From Longimicrobiales bacterium (GTDB taxonomy: Bacteria > Gemmatimonadota > Gemmatimonadetes > Longimicrobiales > Gaopeijiaceae), in the NCBI GenBank assembly GCA_965116905.1, contig OZ220732.1, forward strand, positions 3,840,001 to 3,904,000: a stretch of DNA of 64,000 bases, in the 5' to 3' direction. This document shows positions 8,374 through 63,582 of the stretch, one piece after another. The notes below the pieces were generated by a model. It saw only the letters and a program-made list of their open reading frames with translations, had not been told where the DNA came from and did not search any database. The translations under genes were made by a program, and so were the position numbers. Each line of letters begins with the position of its first letter. Position 1 is the first letter of the stretch.

Positions 8374-10326
8374 ATGACAGCGAGCGCCTCAGATCGGCCG
8401 ACAGTCGCGCCCCGGTCAACCTACGGCGGAATGCGCGTCGCCATTCGAGCGGCCGTGCCGGTCATGGTCCTCATCGGCGCCGCCAGCTGTGAACGGGATA
8501 TCGCCACGCTCGATCCTGCTCCGTTTCCCCCGGAAGCGGAGGTCTTCTACGACGGCTTCGGTCCCGGAGTGCAGTTCTCGGCCTTTGGCGGCTCCAAGGT
8601 CGACGCCCTGGCCATTGAGCACGACGAGGTCTACCGCGGGACCGCCGCACTCAAGTTCACGATACCCGCGCCCACGGATCCCTCCGGCGGCTACGCCGGC
8701 GGCGTCTTCTACTCCGAGGTGCCCCGCGACCTCACCGGCTTTGACGCGCTCACCTTCTGGGCCAGGGCAAGCACTGCGGCCACGGTCAACACCATCGGGA
8801 TCGGCAACGACAACACCGGCGGTTCGCGCTATCCCGCCACGATCGAGGGGCTTCCTTTCTCCACGCGCTGGACGAAGTACGTCGTCCCCTTTCCGCTTCC
8901 GTCCAGGTTGGGCCAGGAGACCGGCCTCTTCCTGATCGCGGAGGGTTCCGAGTACCCGGTCGGCTACGACATCTTCTTCGACGACGTGCAGTTCGAGCGG
9001 CTCGGGACGATCATCAACCCGAGGCCCGCCATCGCGACACAGACGGTAAACGGTGAAGTGGGAGGGACGCTGTCGGTCGGCGGCACGCAGGTGACCTTCG
9101 ACGTCGGCGGCAAGGACCAGACGGTTCTTGCGGCTCCGGCCTACTTCACCTTCACCTCTTCCAATTCGGGAGTGGCCTCGGTGACCCCGGACGGCTCGAT
9201 CTCGCTGATTTCGTCGGGCACCGCCACGATCACCGCCACTCTGGGCTCCACCGCCGCCGCGGGTGCGGTCACCGTCAACGTCACGGCGCCCCCCACGGGC
9301 GCGCCTCCCACTCCCGCGCATCCGGCCGGAGACGTGATCTCCCTGTTCAGCGACGCCTACGATGATGTCCCGGTCGACACCTGGTCGGCGGTCTGGGACC
9401 AGGCGGACGTCGAGGACATCCGGGTCGCCGGCAACCCGGTCAAGAAGTACACCAACCTGGCCTACGCCGGCATCGAGTTCACCTCGCAGCCGATCAACGC
9501 AGCGTCCATGACCGAACTCCACGTCGATCTCTGGACCAACGATCCTTCCGCTTTCCGGATCAAGCTGGTCGACTTCGGAAGCAACGGGGTCTTCGGAGGC
9601 GGCGACGACACGGAACACGAGATCACCCTCGATCAGGGCTCGATGCCACCCATCGCCGCCGGAGCCTGGAACACCCTCGACATCCCGCTCTCGGCCTTTA
9701 CGGGTCTCCTGAACCGGGGCAACCTGGCGCAGATGATCATCTCCGGATCCAGCCCGACCGTCTACCTGGACAACATCTACTTCTTCACCACCAAGCCGCC
9801 TCCGCCGAGCGCGCCCAGCGAGGCCGCCCCGACGCCGACGCACGCCGCGACCGACGTTGTGTCGCTCTTCAGCGACGCCTACAAGGACGCGGCCGTCGAT
9901 ACGTGGTCGGCTTCCTGGGACCAGGCCGATGTCGAGGATGTGCAGATCGCGGGCGACGCCGCCAAGAAGTACAGCAACCTGGTCTTCGCCGGCATCGAGT
10001 TCACCTCGGCGACGCTCGACGCCACCGGGATGACGCACTTCCACATGGATCTCTGGACGCCGGATCCAACGGCAGACCCGTCGGCCTTCCGGATCAAGCT
10101 CGTCGACTTCGGTCCCGATGGCGGCTTCGGCGGAGGGGACGACACCGAACACGAATTGACGTTGAATGCAATGTCCGATCCGCCGCTGGCGACGGGAATG
10201 TGGGTGAGCTACGACATTGTCCTGACGGCGTTCACGGGGCTGACGACACGCGGGCACCTTGCCCAGATGATCATCTCCGGTGATCCGAACACGGTGTTTA
10301 TCGACAACGTGTACCTGCACAAGTAA
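8374..10326 (+). CDS. Carbohydrate-binding lipoprotein (CBM-like domain, Ig-like domain, two tandem galactose-binding-fold-like repeats)
   Basis: Lipobox-like IGAASC; FTSSNSGVASV Ig-like motif; two ~165-aa repeats DVISLFSDAY...FRIKLVDFG...DNIY. Start could be 8431. The TTG at 8251 is the -35 box. Confidence 0.75.
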   Translation: MTASASDRPTVAPRSTYGGMRVAIRAAVPVMVLIGAASCERDIATLDPAPFPPEAEVFYDGFGPGVQFSAFGGSKVDALAIEHDEVYRGTAALKFTIPAPTDPSGGYAGGVFYSEVPRDLTGFDALTFWARASTAATVNTIGIGNDNTGGSRYPATIEGLPFSTRWTKYVVPFPLPSRLGQETGLFLIAEGSEYPVGYDIFFDDVQFERLGTIINPRPAIATQTVNGEVGGTLSVGGTQVTFDVGGKDQTVLAAPAYFTFTSSNSGVASVTPDGSISLISSGTATITATLGSTAAAGAVTVNVTAPPTGAPPTPAHPAGDVISLFSDAYDDVPVDTWSAVWDQADVEDIRVAGNPVKKYTNLAYAGIEFTSQPINAASMTELHVDLWTNDPSAFRIKLVDFGSNGVFGGGDDTEHEITLDQGSMPPIAAGAWNTLDIPLSAFTGLLNRGNLAQMIISGSSPTVYLDNIYFFTTKPPPPSAPSEAAPTPTHAATDVVSLFSDAYKDAAVDTWSASWDQADVEDVQIAGDAAKKYSNLVFAGIEFTSATLDATGMTHFHMDLWTPDPTADPSAFRIKLVDFGPDGGFGGGDDTEHELTLNAMSDPPLATGMWVSYDIVLTAFTGLTTRGHLAQMIISGDPNTVFIDNVYLHK

Positions 10327-54881: not shown

Positions 54882-55667
54882 ATGCATGTCACCTACTTCA
54901 TTCCGGGGCCGCTCTCGCGCGGTCCTCTCGGGTCCGGGGAACTGGAGCGGCGCCGGGCGTATCTGGAACGCCACGCGGCTCCCGGCACAACCGTTGCGGT
55001 TCAGGACAGCGAGGACGGACCGGCGTCAATCGAAAGCTCGGCGGAGGAAGCCCTGAGCGTGCCGTCCCTGCTGGCCGCGGCTCCCCGGCTCGAGTCGAGC
55101 GGAACGAATGCCATCATCGTAGGCTGTTTCGGTGATCCCGGACTATGCGCCGTCCGTGAGGTCACCGGCATTCCCGTGGTGGGTCCCGGCCAGGCGAGCG
55201 GCCACCTTGCGGCCCAGCTCGGCGATCGCTTTGCGGTTTTGACGGTGGTGGACGAGGTGGTTCCCTCCGTGTACAGGCAGATGCGTGGTCACGGCCTGGA
55301 GGGGTTCGTCTCGGAGGTGCGGGCGGTGGAGGTGCCGGTTCTGGAGCTGCGCAGCCGGCGCGACGAGGTGCTGGTCACGCTTGAAGGCGAGGGGCGCGCG
55401 GCCATATCGAACGGTGCCGACACGATCGTCCTCGGATGCATGACGATGGGCTTTCTGGACGTCGCACGGGATTTGCAAGCGCGTCTGGGCGTGCCGGTCG
55501 TCAATCCCGCCGTGGCTGCGCTCAAGGCTGCAGAGGGAATGGTCGCGTCCGGTCTGGTGCCGTCCGCGCGTGCCTATCCGACCCCTCGCAAGGAGCTGAA
55601 GGAGGCCGGCGTTGCGGCAACCTCAGGACAGCGCGACAACCAGCGGGGCAGCCACCCGCTTGAGTAG
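54882..55667 (+). CDS. Asp/Glu/hydantoin racemase family protein
   Basis: GPASIES, GCFGDPG, VLGCMTM, GVPVVNP. Confidence 0.85.
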   Translation: MHVTYFIPGPLSRGPLGSGELERRRAYLERHAAPGTTVAVQDSEDGPASIESSAEEALSVPSLLAAAPRLESSGTNAIIVGCFGDPGLCAVREVTGIPVVGPGQASGHLAAQLGDRFAVLTVVDEVVPSVYRQMRGHGLEGFVSEVRAVEVPVLELRSRRDEVLVTLEGEGRAAISNGADTIVLGCMTMGFLDVARDLQARLGVPVVNPAVAALKAAEGMVASGLVPSARAYPTPRKELKEAGVAATSGQRDNQRGSHPLE

Positions 55668-57410
55668 CCACGACGCTTCCGTGAAGCCGGCTACCACCTG
55701 GTTGACCTGGCGCCGCAGGTCGGTCACCACGAATGGAAACAGCTCCGGCTCCTCTTCCTCCTTCAGGGCGGCCAGCTCGGGCACTCTGGCAAGCCTGGGA
55801 ATGGGAACCCGAGGCGTCGCCGGATCGTGCTCGAACCGGGGTCCTGCGGCGTATCCGATGGGAACCAGGATCCGTGCCAGTCGAAGCAGCGTCTCGTTTG
55901 CCACATCAGGTTCGAGACTGCCGTCTTCGATCGTGTCGTAGAAGGCGTTCAGCCGCTCCAACAGTTCATCGTAGGCATCTCTTACCGGCGCCAGGTTGAA
56001 CACCTTGCCGAGGTCCTTGTCGATCGTTTCTTCATACGCCGCCAGAGCATCTCCCAGTTCGGCCATCGTCGCCCGGAAATCCAGTGGCAGCACTTCGTCG
56101 TCGAGGAACCTCCCGATGGCGGTCAGATAGACCCGGAGGTCGCGTTCCAGGTTGGCGCGGTCCGCGACCTCGATCCGATCCTTCTCGGTGTGCCACGCGA
56201 TGTTGCCCCCGCAGCCGCCCACGGGATAGAACCCGAGCCGGTCCCGCTCCTCCTCGGGGATGTTGGACAGCAGCATGAAAAACGAGGTAAGGCCGATCTG
56301 GTCAAACGAATAGTCCCCCGCCCTCAGGGGCCGCTGGCGGGTCGGCTCGACACCCGCCACGGAATGGATGGAGGACCGGCAGACCTCTTCCGCCTCGGCC
56401 ATCCACGGTACGGCGTCATACTCGGTCGCGCCCCAGCACCCCGGCGAGTCGATGTTGACCGCGGCCACGCACTGCCGGGAGAGTTCGAGAGCGAACTGGT
56501 CCGCGTACCAGGTCGAGCCACCGTAGCGGCCGGTGGAATGCGCAGGCCACCAGGCCACCCGTAGCGACCGCCGCAGGTCCTCCCGGTGTTGGTAGAAGAT
56601 GTGCGCCAACTCGAGCAGGGTCGCGTCGCCCACCGCATTGTCGCCGATCCCGACGTCCCACGAGTCGTAGTGGCCGTGCGCGAGGACGAACTCCTCCTCT
56701 CGGCCATCGATGCGCGCGACAGGGAGCTGGCAGGGGTACCAGCCTTCCTCGAGGTCGGTGTGGAGCGTAATCGCGTCCAGCCCGTCCGCGATCGCTTCCA
56801 CCAACTGGTTCCCGTCCCAGCGATCAATGGCTGCCACCGGGCTGGTGGGACGCTGCCCCAGCTGCGACGCACCCGGCGTACCCCACACGGTCGTGCAGAT
56901 TCCCCAGTGGACGCGGCTGCCCGGATTGATGTACACCTGGCCGGCGGCGCCCGCGGCCTCGAAGCGCGCGACGGACACGGGCATCGGCATCCCCTCGGTC
57001 ACCACGATCTTGCCGGCAATGTCGTCCGGGAGTGAACCATGCGCAGACTTGAACAGATCGGCGGCGTCGGTCGACGGGTTGGCCGGAACGTGGACGGGCG
57101 GCGCCGTCTGTCCCTTCGGGGGGGTCGACGCCGAGAACGAGGGCGGCTTGCCGGCGAAGCGCTCGCCCCCGAATTCGACCGATGCCCCCCGGGGTATGGA
57201 CAGGTAGAGGTCCGGCTCGTAGACGTCGTGGGGGATGCCCGCTTGCTGAAGGCGCGACACGATGTAGTGGGCGGCCGCACGCTCGTCCGGCGACCCGGAC
57301 TCGCGCACGAGCACCGCGAATCGCTCGATCAGGCTCCATCCTTCCGAGCCCTCCTCGAATGACACCTTTGACAGCAGAGATTCGATCAGACTGTTGGTAC
57401 CTCGGGACAT
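55623..57410 (-). CDS. M28 family metallopeptidase with PA domain
   Basis: RESGS, HGHYDSW, GIGDNAVG, NIDSPG, WHTEKD. Confidence 0.85.
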   Translation of the reverse strand: MSRGTNSLIESLLSKVSFEEGSEGWSLIERFAVLVRESGSPDERAAAHYIVSRLQQAGIPHDVYEPDLYLSIPRGASVEFGGERFAGKPPSFSASTPPKGQTAPPVHVPANPSTDAADLFKSAHGSLPDDIAGKIVVTEGMPMPVSVARFEAAGAAGQVYINPGSRVHWGICTTVWGTPGASQLGQRPTSPVAAIDRWDGNQLVEAIADGLDAITLHTDLEEGWYPCQLPVARIDGREEEFVLAHGHYDSWDVGIGDNAVGDATLLELAHIFYQHREDLRRSLRVAWWPAHSTGRYGGSTWYADQFALELSRQCVAAVNIDSPGCWGATEYDAVPWMAEAEEVCRSSIHSVAGVEPTRQRPLRAGDYSFDQIGLTSFFMLLSNIPEEERDRLGFYPVGGCGGNIAWHTEKDRIEVADRANLERDLRVYLTAIGRFLDDEVLPLDFRATMAELGDALAAYEETIDKDLGKVFNLAPVRDAYDELLERLNAFYDTIEDGSLEPDVANETLLRLARILVPIGYAAGPRFEHDPATPRVPIPRLARVPELAALKEEEEPELFPFVVTDLRRQVNQVVAGFTEASWLLKRVAAPLVVALS

Positions 57411-57590: not shown

Positions 57591-58295
57591 TCACCAGTCC
57601 ATGGCGTCCGGCTCGGGCTCGTAGATCGCGAACCCCTTGCGGGTGATCAGGAAAGAGCCCGTCAGGACGAGCGCTGCGCCGACCAAAGCACCGCCGATGG
57701 CGATCGCCAGGGTGTGGTCGCTGGCCATGATGGCCTGGATCAACCGCAACGGACCCCCGAAGAGGCGGTCGACGAGGTACCCACCCGCCATGACCGCCCC
57801 CAGAGCAACCATCGCACCATAGGGAACCAGCAGCTTGATCTTGAAGCGAAGCACAAGCGCAAGGAGCACGGCCGACATCACCGAGAGCATGGTCCAGGCT
57901 CCCAGAAAGGCGGCGATGATGATGCGGATCAAGCCCAGGTCTCCCAGAAACGCGGGGCCCACGATACCACCAGCCGCAGCCATCGGCACTGCTCCCAGCG
58001 CCGCAATAAGGACCAGCGCCGTTAGGCGGGCTCCCGCAAGCGTCAAGGGGGTTACGGGGAGTGTGGTGAGCACCTCCAGGTTGCCCGTCATCCTGTCCTG
58101 AAGCGCATCAAACGGTATCTGCATGCCAAGTGCGCCACCAACCGCAGCTAGCCCGAAGCTCAGCACAGACGTTGGGGATTCCACCATGAGCGAGAAGACC
58201 ACAACCGCCAAGAGGAAGACACCAATTCGCACCAAGCCCTGGCGGAAACGTCGCAACTCGAGTCCCACCAGAGTCCAATAGGGTTGATCAGTCAT
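57591..58295 (-). CDS. ABC-2-type permease
   Basis: About six TM helices; DRMTGNLEVLTTLPVT motif; overlaps the ATPase stop. Confidence 0.8.
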   Translation of the reverse strand: MTDQPYWTLVGLELRRFRQGLVRIGVFLLAVVVFSLMVESPTSVLSFGLAAVGGALGMQIPFDALQDRMTGNLEVLTTLPVTPLTLAGARLTALVLIAALGAVPMAAAGGIVGPAFLGDLGLIRIIIAAFLGAWTMLSVMSAVLLALVLRFKIKLLVPYGAMVALGAVMAGGYLVDRLFGGPLRLIQAIMASDHTLAIAIGGALVGAALVLTGSFLITRKGFAIYEPEPDAMDW

Positions 58296-59004
58296 CGGAT
58301 TCCAAGGCTGAAATGAGGATTTGCGAGAGGGGAGCACCGGGATCGCGTTCCGCCAGCTCCTTCGTGGTGACGTCTTCGAGGATCCGTCCCTGCCGCATCA
58401 GGATGACGCGCTCGGCAATGAACTCCACGTCTTCGAGGATGTGACTGGAAAAGAGGACGAGACGATCACCGCCCGTGGGTGCGCAATCGCCGATGATCTT
58501 CAGTAACTCGCGGCGCTTGACCGGATCGATGGCCGTGGTGGGCTCGTCGAGTATGAGGACAGGTGGCCGGTGCGCCTCGGCCGTTACCAGAGACAGCTTG
58601 ACCGACATGCCCCTGGAAAGCGTGCCCACCTTCGACGCGCCCGGAAGCTCAAGGCGAGTGAGGAGTTCCTGTTCGTAGTCGCGGTCCCAGGTGGGGAAGA
58701 AGGTCGAGAGGAACCGCAGGTGCTCGTCGATGGTCATCCACCCGAATCCGAGCAGGCGTTCAGGGAGAAACCCGATGCGCGCCCTGACCCCCGGCAACTG
58801 GGCCTTGATGTCGCCTCCGTCCACCTCCACCCGGCCCTCGTATTCCCGAAGCCGACCCGCAATCGCCTTGAGGGTCGTGCTCTTCCCGGCCCCGTTCGCG
58901 CCAACCAACGCAACGCGTTCTCCCGGATCGACGGTCAAGTCCATCGGCTCCAGGAAGAAGTTGGAATACCGGACGCTGAATCCCCGCAGCCTCACCCCCG
59001 CCAT
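58288..59004 (-). CDS. ABC transporter ATP-binding protein
   Basis: GANGAGKST, LSRGM, LILDEPT, SSH; start MAGVRL. Confidence 0.92.
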   Translation of the reverse strand: MAGVRLRGFSVRYSNFFLEPMDLTVDPGERVALVGANGAGKSTTLKAIAGRLREYEGRVEVDGGDIKAQLPGVRARIGFLPERLLGFGWMTIDEHLRFLSTFFPTWDRDYEQELLTRLELPGASKVGTLSRGMSVKLSLVTAEAHRPPVLILDEPTTAIDPVKRRELLKIIGDCAPTGGDRLVLFSSHILEDVEFIAERVILMRQGRILEDVTTKELAERDPGAPLSQILISALESDD

Positions 59005-59048
59005 GTGGCAACCCCCACGCCGCCCGCCCACCCTCTCTCTCGTCCGCT

Positions 59049-59729
59049 CTACAATGTGACCCATGCTCGCGCTCCTGAAAAGGCCACCATCACGCCCCAG
59101 AAGAAAAGCGCCAGTCCGAGAGACGGCCGGAGCTCGGGGCCGTCGCACCGACGCAGAGCAATCACGAGGAACCCGAACCAGAGGAAATGACCCACCGAAA
59201 AACTCTGGGCGACCGCTAGCAGACCCGGGTTTGTGGCTGGGACGAAGGCAGCCACCCCCAGGTTGGCCTGGAGATCCGCGGGCGAGGTCGGGCTCCCACC
59301 TGTGGCCCAGTGCAGATAGAGGGCCTGCAACACGCCCTGCGCCGCCAAAATGGCCTCTCCATATAGCAATACGGAGAGCATCGGTCGGACGCGCCGCCGC
59401 GAGTTCGCCAGCACAAGCACAGCCCAACCCAGGGCTGTGAGAAGCCCCGCCTTGAGCAGGTGAACCAGGGGCGACATAACCGCTACTACCCCCAGTACAA
59501 AGAGAGTCCCCTGGGCAATCTCCGGTCCCTGGGTTGCCATGGCACTCAATACCAACGGCCGTAGCGAGAACGCCGCTACTACAGAGAACACCCATCCGAT
59601 CACCAGGGGTGGTACGATAGGGCGATGATCGCGAATGTCGTCCAGGCTGGGAACGAGCATGTTAAGAAAGTGCCGCAGCCGTCCCAGTATCCGTTGCATG
59701 CCTCCGGCGGCCCCCTCTTGTCCACTCAT
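59049..59729 (-). CDS. YIP1-like integral membrane protein
   Basis: MLVPS...IRDHRP N-terminus and about five TM helices; ATGA overlap with the redoxin gene. Confidence 0.6.
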   Translation of the reverse strand: MSGQEGAAGGMQRILGRLRHFLNMLVPSLDDIRDHRPIVPPLVIGWVFSVVAAFSLRPLVLSAMATQGPEIAQGTLFVLGVVAVMSPLVHLLKAGLLTALGWAVLVLANSRRRVRPMLSVLLYGEAILAAQGVLQALYLHWATGGSPTSPADLQANLGVAAFVPATNPGLLAVAQSFSVGHFLWFGFLVIALRRCDGPELRPSLGLALFFWGVMVAFSGARAWVTL

Positions 59730-60268
59730 GACTTGGATTCTCCCATTCCGGTGATTGCCGCGACGTTCTCCGCAAGCATGTTCCTGTTGCTGCGTCCGAC
59801 TCGTATGATCCGGACCGTGTCGGTCTCGTCGACCCAAAAGGTCGCCGGCACCGCGTTGACCCCCAGAGCCCTGCCCACACTTCCGTCTCGGTCGTGTACC
59901 GTCCTGGCGCGAAGCGATGGGGGAACCCACGTCGCGCTTTCCATGACCGACCTGGGAGATGCCACCACCCAGACCGCTACACCGCCCGCGTCACCACCCA
60001 CCACCGACTCCCACAATCCCAACTCCGCCTCGCAATGAACGCACCTGCGATCCACATAGATCAAAGCCGTCGCACCAGCGCCGCTCGCCCGGTATGTCCA
60101 CATCTCCGACTCGCCGATCCAACCCGAGACGGGTGGAAGCACCCAGGGCGGAGCTTCGGGGCCATCCCCTTTCCCGCCCATCCACACAAATGGCATAATC
60201 GCTAGACCCGAAACACAAGCCGCCACCACCAATGCTGCAGTCTTCTGACGTATCGATCGTTGTGGCAT
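59726..60268 (-). CDS. Membrane-anchored thioredoxin-fold redoxin (TlpA-like, CVHC)
   Basis: GGAGGAG RBS; N-terminal TM segment; APPWVL, CVHCEAE, LGVNAVPATFWVD. Confidence 0.8.
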   Translation of the reverse strand: MPQRSIRQKTAALVVAACVSGLAIMPFVWMGGKGDGPEAPPWVLPPVSGWIGESEMWTYRASGAGATALIYVDRRCVHCEAELGLWESVVGGDAGGVAVWVVASPRSVMESATWVPPSLRARTVHDRDGSVGRALGVNAVPATFWVDETDTVRIIRVGRSNRNMLAENVAAITGMGESKS

Positions 60269-60286
60269 CTCAATGACTCCTCCCAC

Positions 60287-60323
60287 AGGGGGACCCGGAC
60301 GCAGCCGCTGCCCGGGTCCCCCT
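60287..60323 (-). terminator. GC-rich stem-loop immediately 3' of the precursor genes (mRNA stabiliser or partial terminator)
   Basis: AGGGGGACCCGG (60287-60298) pairs with CCGGGTCCCCCT (60312-60323), with an inner GCAG/CTGC stem; no U-tract. Confidence 0.6.
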
Positions 60324-60341
60324 CCGCTTTCCCGTTTTGGC

Positions 60342-60641
60342 CTAGAACGCGACGTAGCAAGTGACTGCGCACCGCACCAGGTCCACAATGTCACTTTGTT
60401 GGCTGGCAGAAACGCCGACAAGGCACCGCACGCACAGTCCCTGCAATATGAACAGCGTTGGGATTGTGCCGATATACTGGCCGCCGATAACGCGCTCGGT
60501 CATCTGTGTCTCGAAGAATGTCTCCATCGAGCCCGTGTCGGAGTTCACACCGTACCCTGCACCTGATCCGCCGCTGGTCGCTAAGACTGCGACGATAGCC
60601 GTCACCCCCAAGCCTCGGACGATCCTGTTTGTTGTCCTCAT
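60342..60641 (-). CDS. Putative peptide precursor 5 (CxxC-x17-CxxxC)
   Basis: Signal-peptide-like N-terminus; ERVIGG|Q; CVRC...CAVTC. Confidence 0.7.
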   Translation of the reverse strand: MRTTNRIVRGLGVTAIVAVLATSGGSGAGYGVNSDTGSMETFFETQMTERVIGGQYIGTIPTLFILQGLCVRCLVGVSASQQSDIVDLVRCAVTCYVAF

Positions 60642-60680
60642 CTTACCCCCTGTCTTTCTCTACACAAGAAGACCAGATCC

Positions 60681-60974
60681 CTAGAGATCATCTGCAAAGG
60701 CCACGCCGCACAGGAACCCACAACCCATCAAAGCGATGGCGCCTGCTCCACCCGACACAACCGTTGTCGCTAGACCCCCTGCAGCGCATCCTATGCATCC
60801 CAACTTCTTCCACCATCCCTGCCCTTGAATCACGGTTGAAGTCGATGCTGCCACCGAACGCGTTTCCAACGCCACATCCAGTTCGGTACCGCCTCCTGCT
60901 CCTCGCAGTGACCCCGCCATCAGCACCGCGACCATTACGGCTCCCATGAACCGTCTATTCCGTAGTCTCTTCAT
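60681..60974 (-). CDS. Putative peptide precursor 4 (CxxC-x21-CxxxC)
   Basis: AGGAGG RBS; MKRLRNRRF signal; VIQGQG|WWKK; CIGC...CGFLC. Confidence 0.78.
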   Translation of the reverse strand: MKRLRNRRFMGAVMVAVLMAGSLRGAGGGTELDVALETRSVAASTSTVIQGQGWWKKLGCIGCAAGGLATTVVSGGAGAIALMGCGFLCGVAFADDL

Positions 60975-60984
60975 CGTTTTCCTC

Positions 60985-61281
60985 CTAGAAGTATGTAGCT
61001 TTTGCAAGCTTCCCACATGCAAAACCGCAAGCAATGCCCAGGAAGCCTCCAACGCCAGTTATTGTTACCAGAACGATCGTGCCGGCGATGCACCCCCAGC
61101 ACGCCAGATTGAGGCCCGTGTTCTGAGCGCCCACGACGGTTTCCTCCAACACCATGCTTGTCTCGACCGCTCTGGTACCGTCGACGGCGGCTTGTGCTTG
61201 CCGATTCCCCGCGGTTGTGGCGTTCGCCAGCGCAACCACGGTCAAGACCCGTAGCACTGTTGTAATGCTCGTACTCTTCAT
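60985..61281 (-). CDS. Putative peptide precursor 3 (CxxC-x20-CxxxC)
   Basis: MKSTSITTVLRVLTVVALA signal; ETVVGA|Q; CWGC...CGFAC. Confidence 0.75.
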   Translation of the reverse strand: MKSTSITTVLRVLTVVALANATTAGNRQAQAAVDGTRAVETSMVLEETVVGAQNTGLNLACWGCIAGTIVLVTITGVGGFLGIACGFACGKLAKATYF

Positions 61282-61319
61282 TTGCGCCTGCCTTTCCCTT
61301 TTGTCGCCAAGACCGATGA

Positions 61320-61655
61320 TCATCCGAACCCGAGTGTACAGACAAAGGAGCACGCCCCTACAGCAAACGGAGCCACCGACGCCAATGCTATTAGCCCGAG
61401 GATGCTCGCTCCGCCGCCTACTAGAATGGCTCCGGCGCACCCGAGGCAGCCTACCCTGGCAAGTGCCTGTCCGCCTTCGACCGCGGTAGCCTCTCGCTCG
61501 ACGGCCGTTCGAGCAGATCCCTGCACGTGAATGAGGTCCGCTGGCGTAGCCGCCCGCCCGCCGAGCGCATGCGGCTGCATCGAGCCGCTCGCGAGAGCAA
61601 GCAAGATCATCATCGCCGTGCCGACGTGTGCCTGTTTATGCGTTTTCATACTCAT
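61320..61655 (-). CDS. Putative peptide precursor 2 (CxxC-x28-CxxxC)
   Basis: GGAG upstream; hydrophobic signal; TAVEGG|Q; CLGC...CSFVC; start is one of several Met codons between 61649 and 61667. Confidence 0.75.
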   Translation of the reverse strand: MSMKTHKQAHVGTAMMILLALASGSMQPHALGGRAATPADLIHVQGSARTAVEREATAVEGGQALARVGCLGCAGAILVGGGASILGLIALASVAPFAVGACSFVCTLGFG

Positions 61656-61672
61656 GCTCATCTCCATGTCGA

Positions 61673-61963
61673 TCAGAAGATTGTCTCGTGACACGCGGCC
61701 ACACACCCGGCGAGCGCAACTGTCGAACCGTTTACAGCCATTGCTGCGATGATCCCGCCGGTCTTGACCAGAACGATGCCCGAGACGACGCAACCAAGGC
61801 AGATCGTGAACGCTCCCCATCCCCGACCCTCAACCGCGGTCGGTCCTCCGTCTCCCAACGCGGCGACCGGTGGCCCCCCGGTCAGCTGGGCTCCCTGTGC
61901 CGCGAGCAGCGCAAGGCAGAGCGCGTACACGGTGGCCCGCATTCGTCCTTTCCTCATCATCAT
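61673..61963 (-). CDS. Putative peptide precursor 1 (CxxC-x28-CxxxC)
   Basis: AGGAGGAGG RBS; MRKGRMRATVYALCLALLAA signal; TAVEGRG|W; CLGC...CVAAC. Confidence 0.78.
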   Translation of the reverse strand: MMMRKGRMRATVYALCLALLAAQGAQLTGGPPVAALGDGGPTAVEGRGWGAFTICLGCVVSGIVLVKTGGIIAAMAVNGSTVALAGCVAACHETIF

Positions 61964-62025
61964 CCTCCTCCTTCAGCGATTGTGAACAGAGCCGCAACGC
62001 CCCTCGCCGCGGCCGGAACCAGGGT

Positions 62026-62625
62026 CTACGCCGCGAGCACGATCGACTCGCCGGACCAGATCTCCTGGAATGCTTCTTCGCTGATCGAGTAGCGCCCCGC
62101 CGTGGGATCCACCACGGTCAGACGACCGGACGGCGATCGTCCGGTAACCGTCACGAAATGATTCCGGTTCACCCACGCGATGAACGGCGTACGCGCGTCG
62201 CGCAGGTCTGCCCGCGTGAGGCGTACCAGCGTGAGCGGCAGACCGAATCGGCCAGCGGCCCGAATCAGGCCGCCGGCGGTGGTTCCCCTCGGCCCCATGT
62301 CCGCGAGCACGGCGAGCGTGTCCGTCGAAGGGACCTCGACGCCGACCGCGCGCATCATGTTGGCGAGCGCAGCGGGTCCGCAGTCATTCAGGGCGGACTG
62401 GAAGACGACCGAGTCATCTCCCAGAAACTCCGCATTCAGCCTGGCCAGATCGACGCGTGCCGCGAGTCGCCCCATGCGGGGCAGGTCGGAGACTGCAAAC
62501 GCCGCGAGCAAGATCGTCGCGGGCACCAGCACCAGGGTCAGGATCGCTGTGCGGCGGCGATATGCGACGCGGTGCTCCGAGGGTGGTTTCGGACGGCAGG
62601 ACGCTTCGTGCCGGCTTTCAGGCAT
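62026..62625 (-). CDS. Stand-alone C39 cysteine peptidase with N-terminal membrane anchor
   Basis: QSALNDCGPAALA (Gln/Cys), NHFVTV (His), VVDP (Asp), FQEIWSG; RRR followed by a hydrophobic TM segment; no ABC domains. Confidence 0.88.
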   Translation of the reverse strand: MPESRHEASCRPKPPSEHRVAYRRRTAILTLVLVPATILLAAFAVSDLPRMGRLAARVDLARLNAEFLGDDSVVFQSALNDCGPAALANMMRAVGVEVPSTDTLAVLADMGPRGTTAGGLIRAAGRFGLPLTLVRLTRADLRDARTPFIAWVNRNHFVTVTGRSPSGRLTVVDPTAGRYSISEEAFQEIWSGESIVLAA

Positions 62626-62882: not shown

Positions 62883-63509
62883 CTACAGCGTCTTCAGGAC
62901 CTCCAGAATGTCCTCGTTGGTGGGCCGCACCCGGTAGTCCACCTCCACGAAGCGGTACCGCACGACGCCTTCCTTGTCGATCACGTAGGTGGCGGGATGC
63001 GGCAGAGGCCGGTTGGGAGGCGCGTTTTCGTTGAACAGGCCGTAGCGGTCGATCACGGCGTGGTCCGGGTCGGAGAGCATGATGAAGTCGGGGGCCATGC
63101 CGTCGCTGGCGGCCACCCGGTCGATCATCAGCTGCATTCCCTCCTCGTCATCCACCGACACCGTCACAATTTCGGTCTGGTCCTTGAGGTCGTCGGGCAA
63201 CAGGGCTCTCAGCTCCACGAGCTGACTGGCGCAGAACGGTCACCAGTGGCCCCGGTAAAAGACGAGCACGACGTTCTTGTCCCCACGGAAGCCCGAGAGC
63301 GCCACAGGGCCGCGGTCGAAGGACTCCAATGTGAACAGCGGCGCTTCGTCCCCGACAGCCACGCGCTCGATGTCGGTGCCCGGCAGGTCGTGACCGTCGG
63401 CCGGACCCAGGTCCTGTGCGCGAGTCGGGGTTGCGGTGGCAACCAGCCCCAGGAGGACCGGCAACGCGGCGAATCGCACGCCAGCCAGAAATCGAGTGGA
63501 TGGGAACAT
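62883..63509 (-). CDS. Secreted AhpC/TSA peroxiredoxin-like selenoprotein (UxxC)
   Basis: ORFs 63240..63569 and 62883..63218 are in frame, joined by TGA at 63240-63242 giving FYRGHW-U-PFC; downstream PATYVIDKEG and DYRVRP. Confidence 0.82.
63209..63225 (-). promoter_or_regulatory. Candidate bacterial SECIS hairpin
   Basis: TCAGCTC-GTG-GAGCTGA begins 14 nt 3' of the in-frame UGA, with G in the loop. Confidence 0.6.
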
Positions 63510-63582
63510 GTTTGTGGTCCGTTGCAAAGTGGCGGATTCGGACCGGGTACACGCCCGGTTCCGGGACACCTATGTTAATCGC

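Follow-up and report, generated by a model that had tools for sequence, protein, structure and literature searches.

The 64,000-nucleotide stretch of DNA analyzed here (the window; positions 3,840,001 to 3,904,000 of the forward strand of contig OZ220732.1, assembly GCA_965116905.1, from a Longimicrobiales bacterium of the phylum Gemmatimonadota) carries at 57591-62625 an operon of ten minus-strand genes that was found to be a real and conserved peptide system, self-contained and apparently not yet described. An initial annotation, made from the letters alone, had listed ten co-oriented genes in the order C39 peptidase, five small precursors with a CxxC..CxxxC pattern, stem-loop, redoxin, Yip1-like protein, ATP-binding cassette (ABC) ATPase and ABC-2 permease, and both the order and the limits were reproduced. 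As judged from gene content, the conserved unit is a pair formed by the first two precursors, here called peptides A and B, and the other three (p3 to p5) are lineage-specific extras. A maturation route in which the precursors pass through Sec and are then cut by a periplasmic C39 peptidase is considered highly probable. The function, argued by analogy, is the weaker step: the sequence data mildly favor a bacteriocin-like, membrane-active product of two disulfide-stapled peptides, together with a Yip1/ABC-2 extractor.

The earlier view that the cluster belongs to no named class was upheld. A literature search, with subscription journals and supplements (including those of the bufferin preprint and PMC11316326) mostly outside its scope, found no account of the operon. 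The accessible part of a survey of marine Gemmatimonadota reports Nif11-type bacteriocins, lasso peptides and microcin genes only (PMC11316326). The features are as follows (aa, amino acids).

62026-62625 (-): C39 peptidase, 199 aa; PF03412 E 7.6e-23; N-terminal signal anchor, catalytic domain predicted periplasmic
61673-61963 (-): precursor p1, peptide A, 96 aa; cut predicted after VEGR; 49-aa core at 61676-61822; CxxC-x28-CxxxC
61320-61655 (-): precursor p2, peptide B, 111 aa; cut predicted after VEGG; 49-aa core at 61323-61469; CxxC-x28-CxxxC; conserved Pro34
60985-61281 (-): precursor p3, lineage-specific extra, 98 aa; cut predicted after VVGA; 46-aa core; CxxC-x20-CxxxC
60681-60974 (-): precursor p4, lineage-specific extra, 97 aa; cut predicted after IQGQ; 45-aa core; CxxC-x21-CxxxC
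60342-60641 (-): precursor p5, lineage-specific extra, 99 aa; cut predicted after VIGG; 45-aa core; CxxC-x17-CxxxC
60284-60326 (-): GC-rich stem-loop without a U-tract, located after the precursor genes and before those of the machinery; fold z −2.8
59726-60268 (-): membrane-anchored thioredoxin-fold oxidoreductase (CVHC), ResA/StoA/TlpA-like, predicted periplasmic; Protein Data Bank (PDB) matches StoA and ResA
59049-59729 (-): Yip1/YknW-like multi-pass membrane protein; homologues match PF04893
58288-59004 (-): ABC ATPase, exporter type; PF00005 E 4e-27
57591-58295 (-): ABC-2-type permease; homologues match ABC2_membrane_5

The precursor peptides

The C-terminal CxxC..CxxxC pattern was present in 5 of the 514 window frames (stop to stop, at least 60 aa), which are exactly p1 to p5, and the spacer of 17 to 28 residues claimed for it was confirmed (28, 28, 20, 21 and 17). 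Genome-wide, the pattern occurred in 26 of 36,227 frames. Six of these had a hydrophobic core, namely p1 to p5 and a lone frame at C1:877,868 (+), which has no operon matches nearby and is probably due to chance; the other 20 had a grand average of hydropathy (GRAVY) of 0.18 or less. The five precursors are related to one another, matching pairs reaching blastp E values of 1e-8 to 2e-3, with the four cysteines invariant. The ratio of nonsynonymous to synonymous substitution rates (dN/dS), calculated with three close orthologues each, was 0.70, 0.24, 0.13, 0.27 and 0.36 for the cores of p1 to p5, respectively, and 0.27 to 0.56 for their pre-pro parts. Since it was below 1 in all five, they were deduced to be real genes. 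The GC content was 0.60 to 0.61 over 59 to 62 kb compared to 0.68 for the genome, and a promoter scan returned two sites against 1.0 expected.

Each precursor opens with a basic N terminus and a hydrophobic stretch, after which come a pro-region of polar character (median length, 31 aa), the V/I-x-G-x site and the core. The cores of p1 to p5 are 45 to 49 aa long, with a GRAVY of 1.1 to 1.7 and a net charge of 0 to +2. For linear cores with two disulfides, the calculated monoisotopic masses are 4746.39 (p1), 4517.35 (p2), 4588.31 (p3), 4283.05 (p4) and 4857.47 (p5). The signal-like N termini of all five, as well as the anchors on the C39 peptidase and the redoxin, had been missed in the initial annotation. 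Precursor p1 scored 51.7 with the A profile and 15.1 with the B profile, and p2 scored 45.4 with B and 1.8 with A. A and B are paralogues (hhalign, 99%) that are kept as distinct classes, and all four cysteines are invariant in each.

A family profile was built from 68 four-cysteine precursors, the two-cysteine members being left out, and its search of 1.84 billion representatives returned 191 clusters at 50% identity. All 150 members listed carried CxxC-x(17-32)-CxxxC, which was partly built in by the four-cysteine query. A Sec-type signal-like N terminus, assigned by a simple charge and hydropathy rule, was found in 140 of the listed members and in all five window precursors. Export as lipoproteins or through Tat was rejected, since a lipobox was found in 1 of the 150 and the Tat consensus in none.

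The conserved glycine of the proposed cut site was substantiated. The motif [VIL]-x-G was found 6 to 24 residues before Cys1 in 132 of the 150 members, compared with 55 of 146 upstream control windows, and among 123 A and B members, counted from Cys1, V was at −11 in 70, G at −9 in 95 and G at −7 in 89. The site reads mostly VVGG-Q in the extras of the genus and xxGG/GA in Acidobacteriota precursors, and for this reason the first Gly is favored as P2. The residue after it did not follow the expected G, A or S (59 of 143): P1 was R in 33, A in 24, G in 22, Q in 16, T in 13 and S in 13 (n = 143; 7 of the 150 had no match to the site pattern). V, I or L was present at −4 in 129 of the 143.

The helical hairpin proposed for the cores was supported by AF2 models of A (helices 2-21, 24-29 and 32-48; predicted local distance difference test [pLDDT], 75) and B (helices 2-19, 23-32 and 34-48; pLDDT, 82). 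In these models the core would be a helix-turn-kinked-helix hairpin with Cys8 and Cys11 on the first helix and Cys40 and Cys44 on the last, and the predicted nested disulfide pairing is plausible. The tail after Cys4 was 5 to 6 residues in 33 of 46 A and 63 of 77 B members (full range, 1 to 10), and some tails end in acidic runs. A complex prediction for cores A and B scored 0.02 against a mark of 0.32; with controls not folded, it counts neither way. No matches were obtained by Foldseek in the pdb set with core B or by the precursor profile against PDB sequences at E 5. A wide fold search gave generic helical hairpins only (best Z, 5.3 for B and 6.2 for A), and the same held for solved small-toxin folds such as saposin-like and twin-CX hairpins (Z ≤6.2). 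In the ESM Atlas the best match to p1 was 0.76, and one Bacteriocin_IIc cluster at 0.75 is a lead only.

The peptidase, the redoxin and the transporter genes

The gene labels given earlier were firm for the C39 peptidase and the ABC ATPase; that of the redoxin lay below the cutoff, and those of Yip1 and ABC-2 were reached through homologues only. The C39 protein begins with RRR, followed by a hydrophobic segment (residues 25 to 48) and the peptidase domain. Its catalytic residues Q76, C82, H156 and D173 were intact and invariant in all 38 aligned homologues (38 of 60 available sequences). The closest solved structures were the peptidase domains of peptidase-containing ABC transporters (PCATs; 4ry2, E 5e-19), and these were nearer than the FilB model (E 7e-4; 19 bits compared to a cutoff of 475). 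The operon C39s formed one clade apart from the PCAT rows, with support of 100/98 (135 columns).

The only other C39 of the genome belongs to a PCAT at a separate locus (C1:4,045,986-4,055,000) with a second transporter, not linked to the operon. This locus also appears to hold an NHLP-like precursor and a likely cyclodehydratase-type gene. The separate PCAT was rejected as the exporter of the operon because it has this precursor of its own.

The window redoxin matched the Redoxin Pfam family below the cutoff (E 9e-4). Its CxxC cysteines C76 and C79 were invariant in 29 of 29 sequences, its PDB matches were StoA (E 7.5e-9) and ResA (E 5.5e-8), and it has the same N-terminal anchor pattern as the C39 peptidase. 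Basic residues that precede a membrane helix stay on the cytoplasmic side; from this positive-inside rule, the C39 and redoxin domains behind their anchors are predicted to face the periplasm. Taken with the Sec signals on the precursors, the anchors indicate that cutting and disulfide chemistry are likely periplasmic, in which case the ABC transporter is probably not an exporter across the inner membrane. A PCAT-style cut-and-export mechanism was therefore not supported.

The Yip1 label rests on PF04893 matches in 3 of 34 homologues (best, 5.4e-5); the window protein itself had no match, with YknW_fam at E 0.028. The best NCBIfam model for the ATPase was PmtA (E 4.5e-37), below its cutoff. 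ABC2_membrane_5 matched 15 of 31 homologues of the permease and not the window permease itself. Mean pairwise identity over 19 loci was 41% for the permease, 59% for Yip1, 69% for the ATPase and 43% for the B core, and the permease was the fastest-diverging machinery gene (dN/dS, 0.41 compared with 0.13 for Yip1). This would be expected of a specificity subunit tracking its cargo, although kin share history and the divergence is no proof of co-evolution.

The stem-loop noted earlier was confirmed: it folds at −38.2 kcal/mol (z −2.8) without a U-tract, and none of 200 shuffles was as good. In 16 of 32 loci a hairpin of differing sequence, with z of −2 or lower, came after the final scored precursor; in four loci the folded window also contained another open reading frame (ORF). 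The element is likely one of mRNA stability or attenuation, and a hairpin in this position would increase precursor mRNA relative to that of the machinery. Contigs of a related operon occur in a sponge RNA library, but this library also covers all 30 bins of a control stretch of 19 kb, so these contigs do not demonstrate transcription.

Distribution in Gemmatimonadota and other phyla

Among 53 genomes of the genus, the Yip1-like gene was present in 20. In all 19 carriers besides the window genome the operon stood at the site before an M28 peptidase gene (one permease being found by hidden Markov model only), and one additional locus, truncated by its contig end, was included. Among five genomes without the gene, two show AhpC directly before M28, a clean empty site; in the other three, neither AhpC nor operon genes were found within 1.5 kb. 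In the window, the M28 peptidase, which has a PA domain (55623-57410, -), forms the downstream operon edge found across the genus and adjoins AhpC where the operon is missing. The AhpC/TSA redoxin (62883-63569, -) occupies two consecutive frames with a TGA right after the motif VFYRGHW and is split likewise in all seven compared relatives showing both halves, a pattern that suggests selenocysteine read-through.

From the 20 genus operons, 89 precursors were extracted, 3 to 6 per locus. This is a lower bound, as L035 to L037 seem to carry an additional short ORF and L039 has an interrupted A gene. Four core cysteines, as claimed, are present in all five window precursors and in 68 of the 89; the remaining 21 have two only, spaced 18 to 21 apart.

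Wider genome and metagenome scans used a single pattern, DCGPAALA[NT], with 80 of 110 relatives kept in each, so that the range is likewise a lower bound. Gemmatimonadota accounted for 48 of the 80 loci. L100, whose C39 lies outside the clade, was left out of the count, and six of the other 47 end too soon, giving 41. All 41 have Yip1, ATPase, permease and A, and 40 have the redoxin. A B-scoring gene follows A directly in 39; L054 does not reach the B threshold, and in L060 the A gene is disrupted by an insertion. Exactly A then B was found in 19 of the 41 and extras in 22, so that a five-component toxin was not supported. All 22 expanded operons fall in one 24-row C39 subclade that includes the window (98/95; 135 columns).

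In a draw of 401 genomes from the phylum, with 12 candidates scored per genome, the B profile matched in at least 19 genomes of five families. All 38 matches in these 19 genomes lay at one locus per genome, with a redoxin at 19 of 19 and a C39 at 18 of 19 of these short loci (the exception is the insertion case). Precursors away from C39 and redoxin genes, which the initial annotation had named as counter-evidence, were not found among these matches. A comparison of 29 neighborhoods revealed no further conserved gene, and the flanks differ by lineage. The nearest named C39 relatives (87 to 89% identity) are from Gemmatimonadota/Longimicrobiales genomes, and contigs with related operons were present in two sponge metagenome runs.

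Several loci show other arrangements. At L060:8523-11405 (same genome as L039, G064), an insertion of ~2.5 kb interrupts the A gene and the rest looks intact, and L040:4781-8680 (G052) is a decaying copy with redoxin and permease split over two frames and Yip1 interrupted by ~1.5 kb. Extras precede A in L057, L059 and L063 (~8600-9600), and their near-identical signal/pro regions with divergent cores are a sign of recent tandem duplication. An extra precursor-like ORF lies just upstream of C39 in several two-peptide loci (L075:7467-7853, L073, L079, L087 and L067). The excluded locus L100:5547-8396 (Gemmatimonadales) encodes a classical GG-leader peptide with two cysteines, a membrane protein, an ATPase and a stand-alone C39 without an anchor, and is possibly a cytoplasmic split version.

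A similar architecture was found in other phyla. At the Acidobacteriota metagenome locus L143, the order is redoxin, anchored C39, a pair of Cys precursors with signals, a membrane protein of 500 aa that matches no known family, ATPase and Yip1-like frame. Its C39 as query matched in 11 of 401 Acidobacteriota genomes, including three PCAT-length frames and the source genome itself. Among the seven others, the five loci L251 to L255 encode two precursors together with the large membrane protein, an ATPase and another membrane protein; in L249 and L250, a single precursor-like frame accompanies a membrane protein and an ATPase. Three of L249 to L255 were scanned, and Yip1 was confirmed in all three (E 7e-13 to 3e-4). 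The frame at L143 matched no Pfam family, and a thioredoxin fold was found in L251 and L143. Matches in Fidelibacterota came from 6 of 201 genomes. Three loci of that phylum were inspected: L086 and L259 encode a GG/Cys precursor with a signal, whereas no precursor was seen at L095. Since the Gemmatimonadota profile detects no Acidobacteriota or Fidelibacterota cores, the architecture is common to the phyla and core homology is not shown.

Stand-alone C39 loci of Deinococcota, Halieaceae and Abditibacteriota had no such neighbors under the filter used. C39s with signals or anchors and no Cys precursor nearby were seen at L092, L114, L115 and L118 (Deinococcota, unclassified) and at L097, L108, L113 and L119 (Halieaceae), and further stand-alone C39s with N-terminal signals or anchors, again with no Cys precursor nearby, at L103, L104, L109 and L111.

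Proposed function and comparison with known systems

In the scheme that we infer, including its topology, cut register, disulfide pairing, cooperation of A and B, transporter role and toxicity, the precursors would pass through Sec with the signal removed or retained as an anchor. The core would fold as a hairpin and acquire its disulfides with help from the membrane-anchored redoxin. The anchored C39 would then cut at V-x-G-x, removing the acidic pro-region and freeing a hydrophobic hairpin of 45 to 49 residues. Yip1, permease and ATPase may form one ATP-driven extractor that takes the hairpins out of the producer inner membrane, serving self-protection as well as product release. In the least certain step, A and B together would act on competitor membranes. 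The operon shows traits typical of competition loci, with patchy presence, empty sites, low GC, variable extras and a fast-diverging permease. Analogies in favor of the toxin are SdpC with YknWXYZ, CdzC/CdzD and the Yip1 genes found alongside circular as well as leaderless bacteriocin clusters (PMC11580447).

Several observations count against this scheme or its toxin step. The P1 range is wider than the GG, GA or GS sites that the accessible part of PMC10885120 gives for PCATs. The leader has no conserved hydrophobic residues at −7 and −12, the signal peptides were judged by the charge and hydropathy rule and not by SignalP, and the precursors reach no Pfam or NCBIfam cutoff and match no bacteriocin family. 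The cores are neutral (mean net charge, −0.15 for A and −0.18 for B), unlike most membrane-active bacteriocins. GxxxG was rejected as support for two peptides because it was not enriched over shuffles (30 of 46 A compared with 33.7; 54 of 77 B compared with 54.5). ResA and StoA, which the redoxin resembles, are reductases. Neither a small dedicated immunity gene nor an outer-membrane channel for exit from a diderm cell was conserved in or beside the operon. That the operon occupies a single chromosomal site throughout the genus would also suit a vertically inherited envelope function.

With the same maturation, A and B could instead be structural or regulatory envelope subunits of the producer itself (a hetero-oligomeric membrane patch, filament or coat), which the ABC complex would deliver instead of conferring protection. 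Both annotated stand-alone periplasmic C39 families, FapD (as far as the accessible part of PMC5557850 goes) and the FilB model, serve fibers; the cores are very hydrophobic as well as neutral, the order and classes of A and B are kept across several families, and the hairpin after the precursors would permit bulk subunit synthesis. This explanation was nonetheless judged unlikely: no conserved FapF-like barrel or usher was found, the peptidase is nearer to PCAT domains than to FapD/FilB, copies are patchy, absent from empty sites or decaying, and the extras are highly variable. The four cysteines could alternatively be kept reduced by the ResA-like redoxin and bind Cu or Zn, as in a membrane-bound analogue of bufferins, periplasmic metallophores that also combine a Sec signal with four cysteines (bioRxiv 2024.03.18.585515, accessible part). 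Metal binding would suit a redoxin of the ResA/StoA group and four cysteines invariant in A and B, but it is quite improbable given that no MNIO/DUF692 partner, metal transporter or regulator was conserved nearby, that the 21 two-cysteine precursors have a spacing that fits a single disulfide, and that five divergent cores would be needless for a buffer.

The peptides might also be signals or host-directed modulators rather than bactericidal agents, in kin recognition or sponge interaction, with the extras widening the repertoire. All 22 expanded operons being in the C39 clade of the window, whose close relatives occur in sponge metagenome contigs, would accord with this. However, the conserved surroundings of the operon include no sensor kinase, regulator or receptor, and operons with A+B alone also occur in other families and in the samples of other collections (habitat was checked for the window relatives only), which makes such a role distinctly improbable. 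Finally, the C39 protein could act as a transpeptidase that joins the two ends of each hairpin, giving circular peptides. Clusters for circular bacteriocins contain Yip1 and ABC genes (PMC11580447, accessible part), and the mostly short tails after Cys4 may bring the termini close. Circularization is nevertheless extremely improbable: operon proteins gave no DUF95/SpoIIM match, tails vary from 1 to 10 residues with some acidic runs, and the cores do not resemble known circular bacteriocins, which are longer (best match E 0.31, 1 of 78).

The bacteriocin-like reading may extend, tentatively and with some doubt, to a cross-phylum peptide class, with this operon as its first example, in which a double-glycine protease has become detached from its exporter and periplasmic, the leader is two-stage, A and B are extracted by Yip1/ABC-2 for delivery, and one sponge-associated lineage has an expanded polymorphic arsenal. 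C39 peptidases are known mainly as cytoplasmic exporter domains. With many natural candidate substrates beside a PCAT-like C39, specificity is directly testable and a more tolerant leader protease may be obtained. Profile-based mining likely misses these precursors because no Pfam or NCBIfam family matches them. If the products are antibacterial, they would be a new neutral disulfide-stapled scaffold from Gemmatimonadota, a phylum that has received little study, and might be a factor in competition within sponge microbiomes.

Among known systems, class IIb bacteriocins, including Caulobacter CdzC/CdzD, a hydrophobic two-peptide killer in a Gram-negative (PMC5380434, accessible part), share a pair of neighboring but distinct hydrophobic precursors, a cut site that contains Gly, a C39 and no tailoring enzyme beyond a thiol-disulfide oxidoreductase. 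The paired genes of that class are also seen here, in that A and the directly following B are kept as described above. The operon differs in its Sec-type signal before the leader, relaxed P1, lack of GxxxG enrichment and two predicted disulfides, and its C39 is stand-alone and anchored rather than ABC-fused, with no type I secretion adaptor, TolC or small immunity gene. Membership was rejected on the Sec signal (140 of 150), the leader pattern and the absence of a fused PCAT/AMS (ABC-transporter maturation and secretion) transporter.

The SdpC protein of Bacillus subtilis combines a secretion signal and a pro-region with a hydrophobic toxin of 42 aa that contains one disulfide, and YknWXYZ, which includes a Yip1 protein, confers resistance to it (PMC6818787 and PMC4887032, accessible parts). 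The operon resembles it in the signal, the pro-region, the C-terminal hydrophobic peptide of ~42 to 49 aa with a disulfide (predicted here) and the Yip1 protein tied to an ABC transporter. It differs in precursors of ~100 rather than 203 aa, two or more peptides, C39 processing, a diderm host and an ABC-2 permease without a membrane-fusion protein, and there is no sequence match. Among the ten operon proteins and 68 precursors, no SdpA/SdpB, SdpI/SdpR or SdpC match was found, and assignment to the sporulation-delaying protein system was rejected. Circular bacteriocins were set aside because DUF95 is lacking and the membrane proteins resolve as Yip1 and ABC-2.

FapD of Pseudomonas, an active periplasmic C39, and the FilB model share with the operon a C39 outside the cytoplasm and an operon of Sec-exported proteins. 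In the accessible part of PMC5557850, FapD has a Sec signal peptide and belongs to an amyloid system with an outer-membrane barrel, and its target is unclear; the operon C39, by contrast, looks anchored, is PCAT-like and lies beside candidate substrates with a conserved site. Fap/Fil membership was rejected, with no conserved barrel in the 29 neighborhoods and the FilB score far below its cutoff. The halocin C8-like family Gpos_C8_like (TIGR04450) is alike in a C-terminal Cys-bearing hydrophobic domain with a weak model match, but the precursors are ~100 aa compared with a 240-position model; p4 reached 9.8 bits against a cutoff of 27 and 2 of 68 precursors matched (E 0.27 to 0.54), so this family was also rejected. 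Consistent with the initial annotation, no tailoring enzyme was found in the operon or recognized among conserved neighbors, which argues against a glycocin, lanthipeptide, sactipeptide or other modified ribosomally synthesized peptide (RiPP).

Bufferins are described, in the accessible part of bioRxiv 2024.03.18.585515, as the first bacterial RiPPs with Sec signals and this export as a new paradigm, of which the operon would be a second, independent case with a dedicated protease. The likeness extends to a length of 80 to 120 aa, four cysteines and periplasmic maturation. The operon differs in its second leader, dedicated peptidase, hydrophobic helical cores and ABC/Yip1 transporter, and membership was rejected since neither MNIO (multinuclear non-heme iron oxidase; DUF692) nor DUF2063 was found among the ten operon proteins. 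As its parts are known, the system is best viewed as a variant of disulfide-bearing double-glycine peptides, in which the proposed route through Sec to a periplasmic C39 and the precursor family are new.

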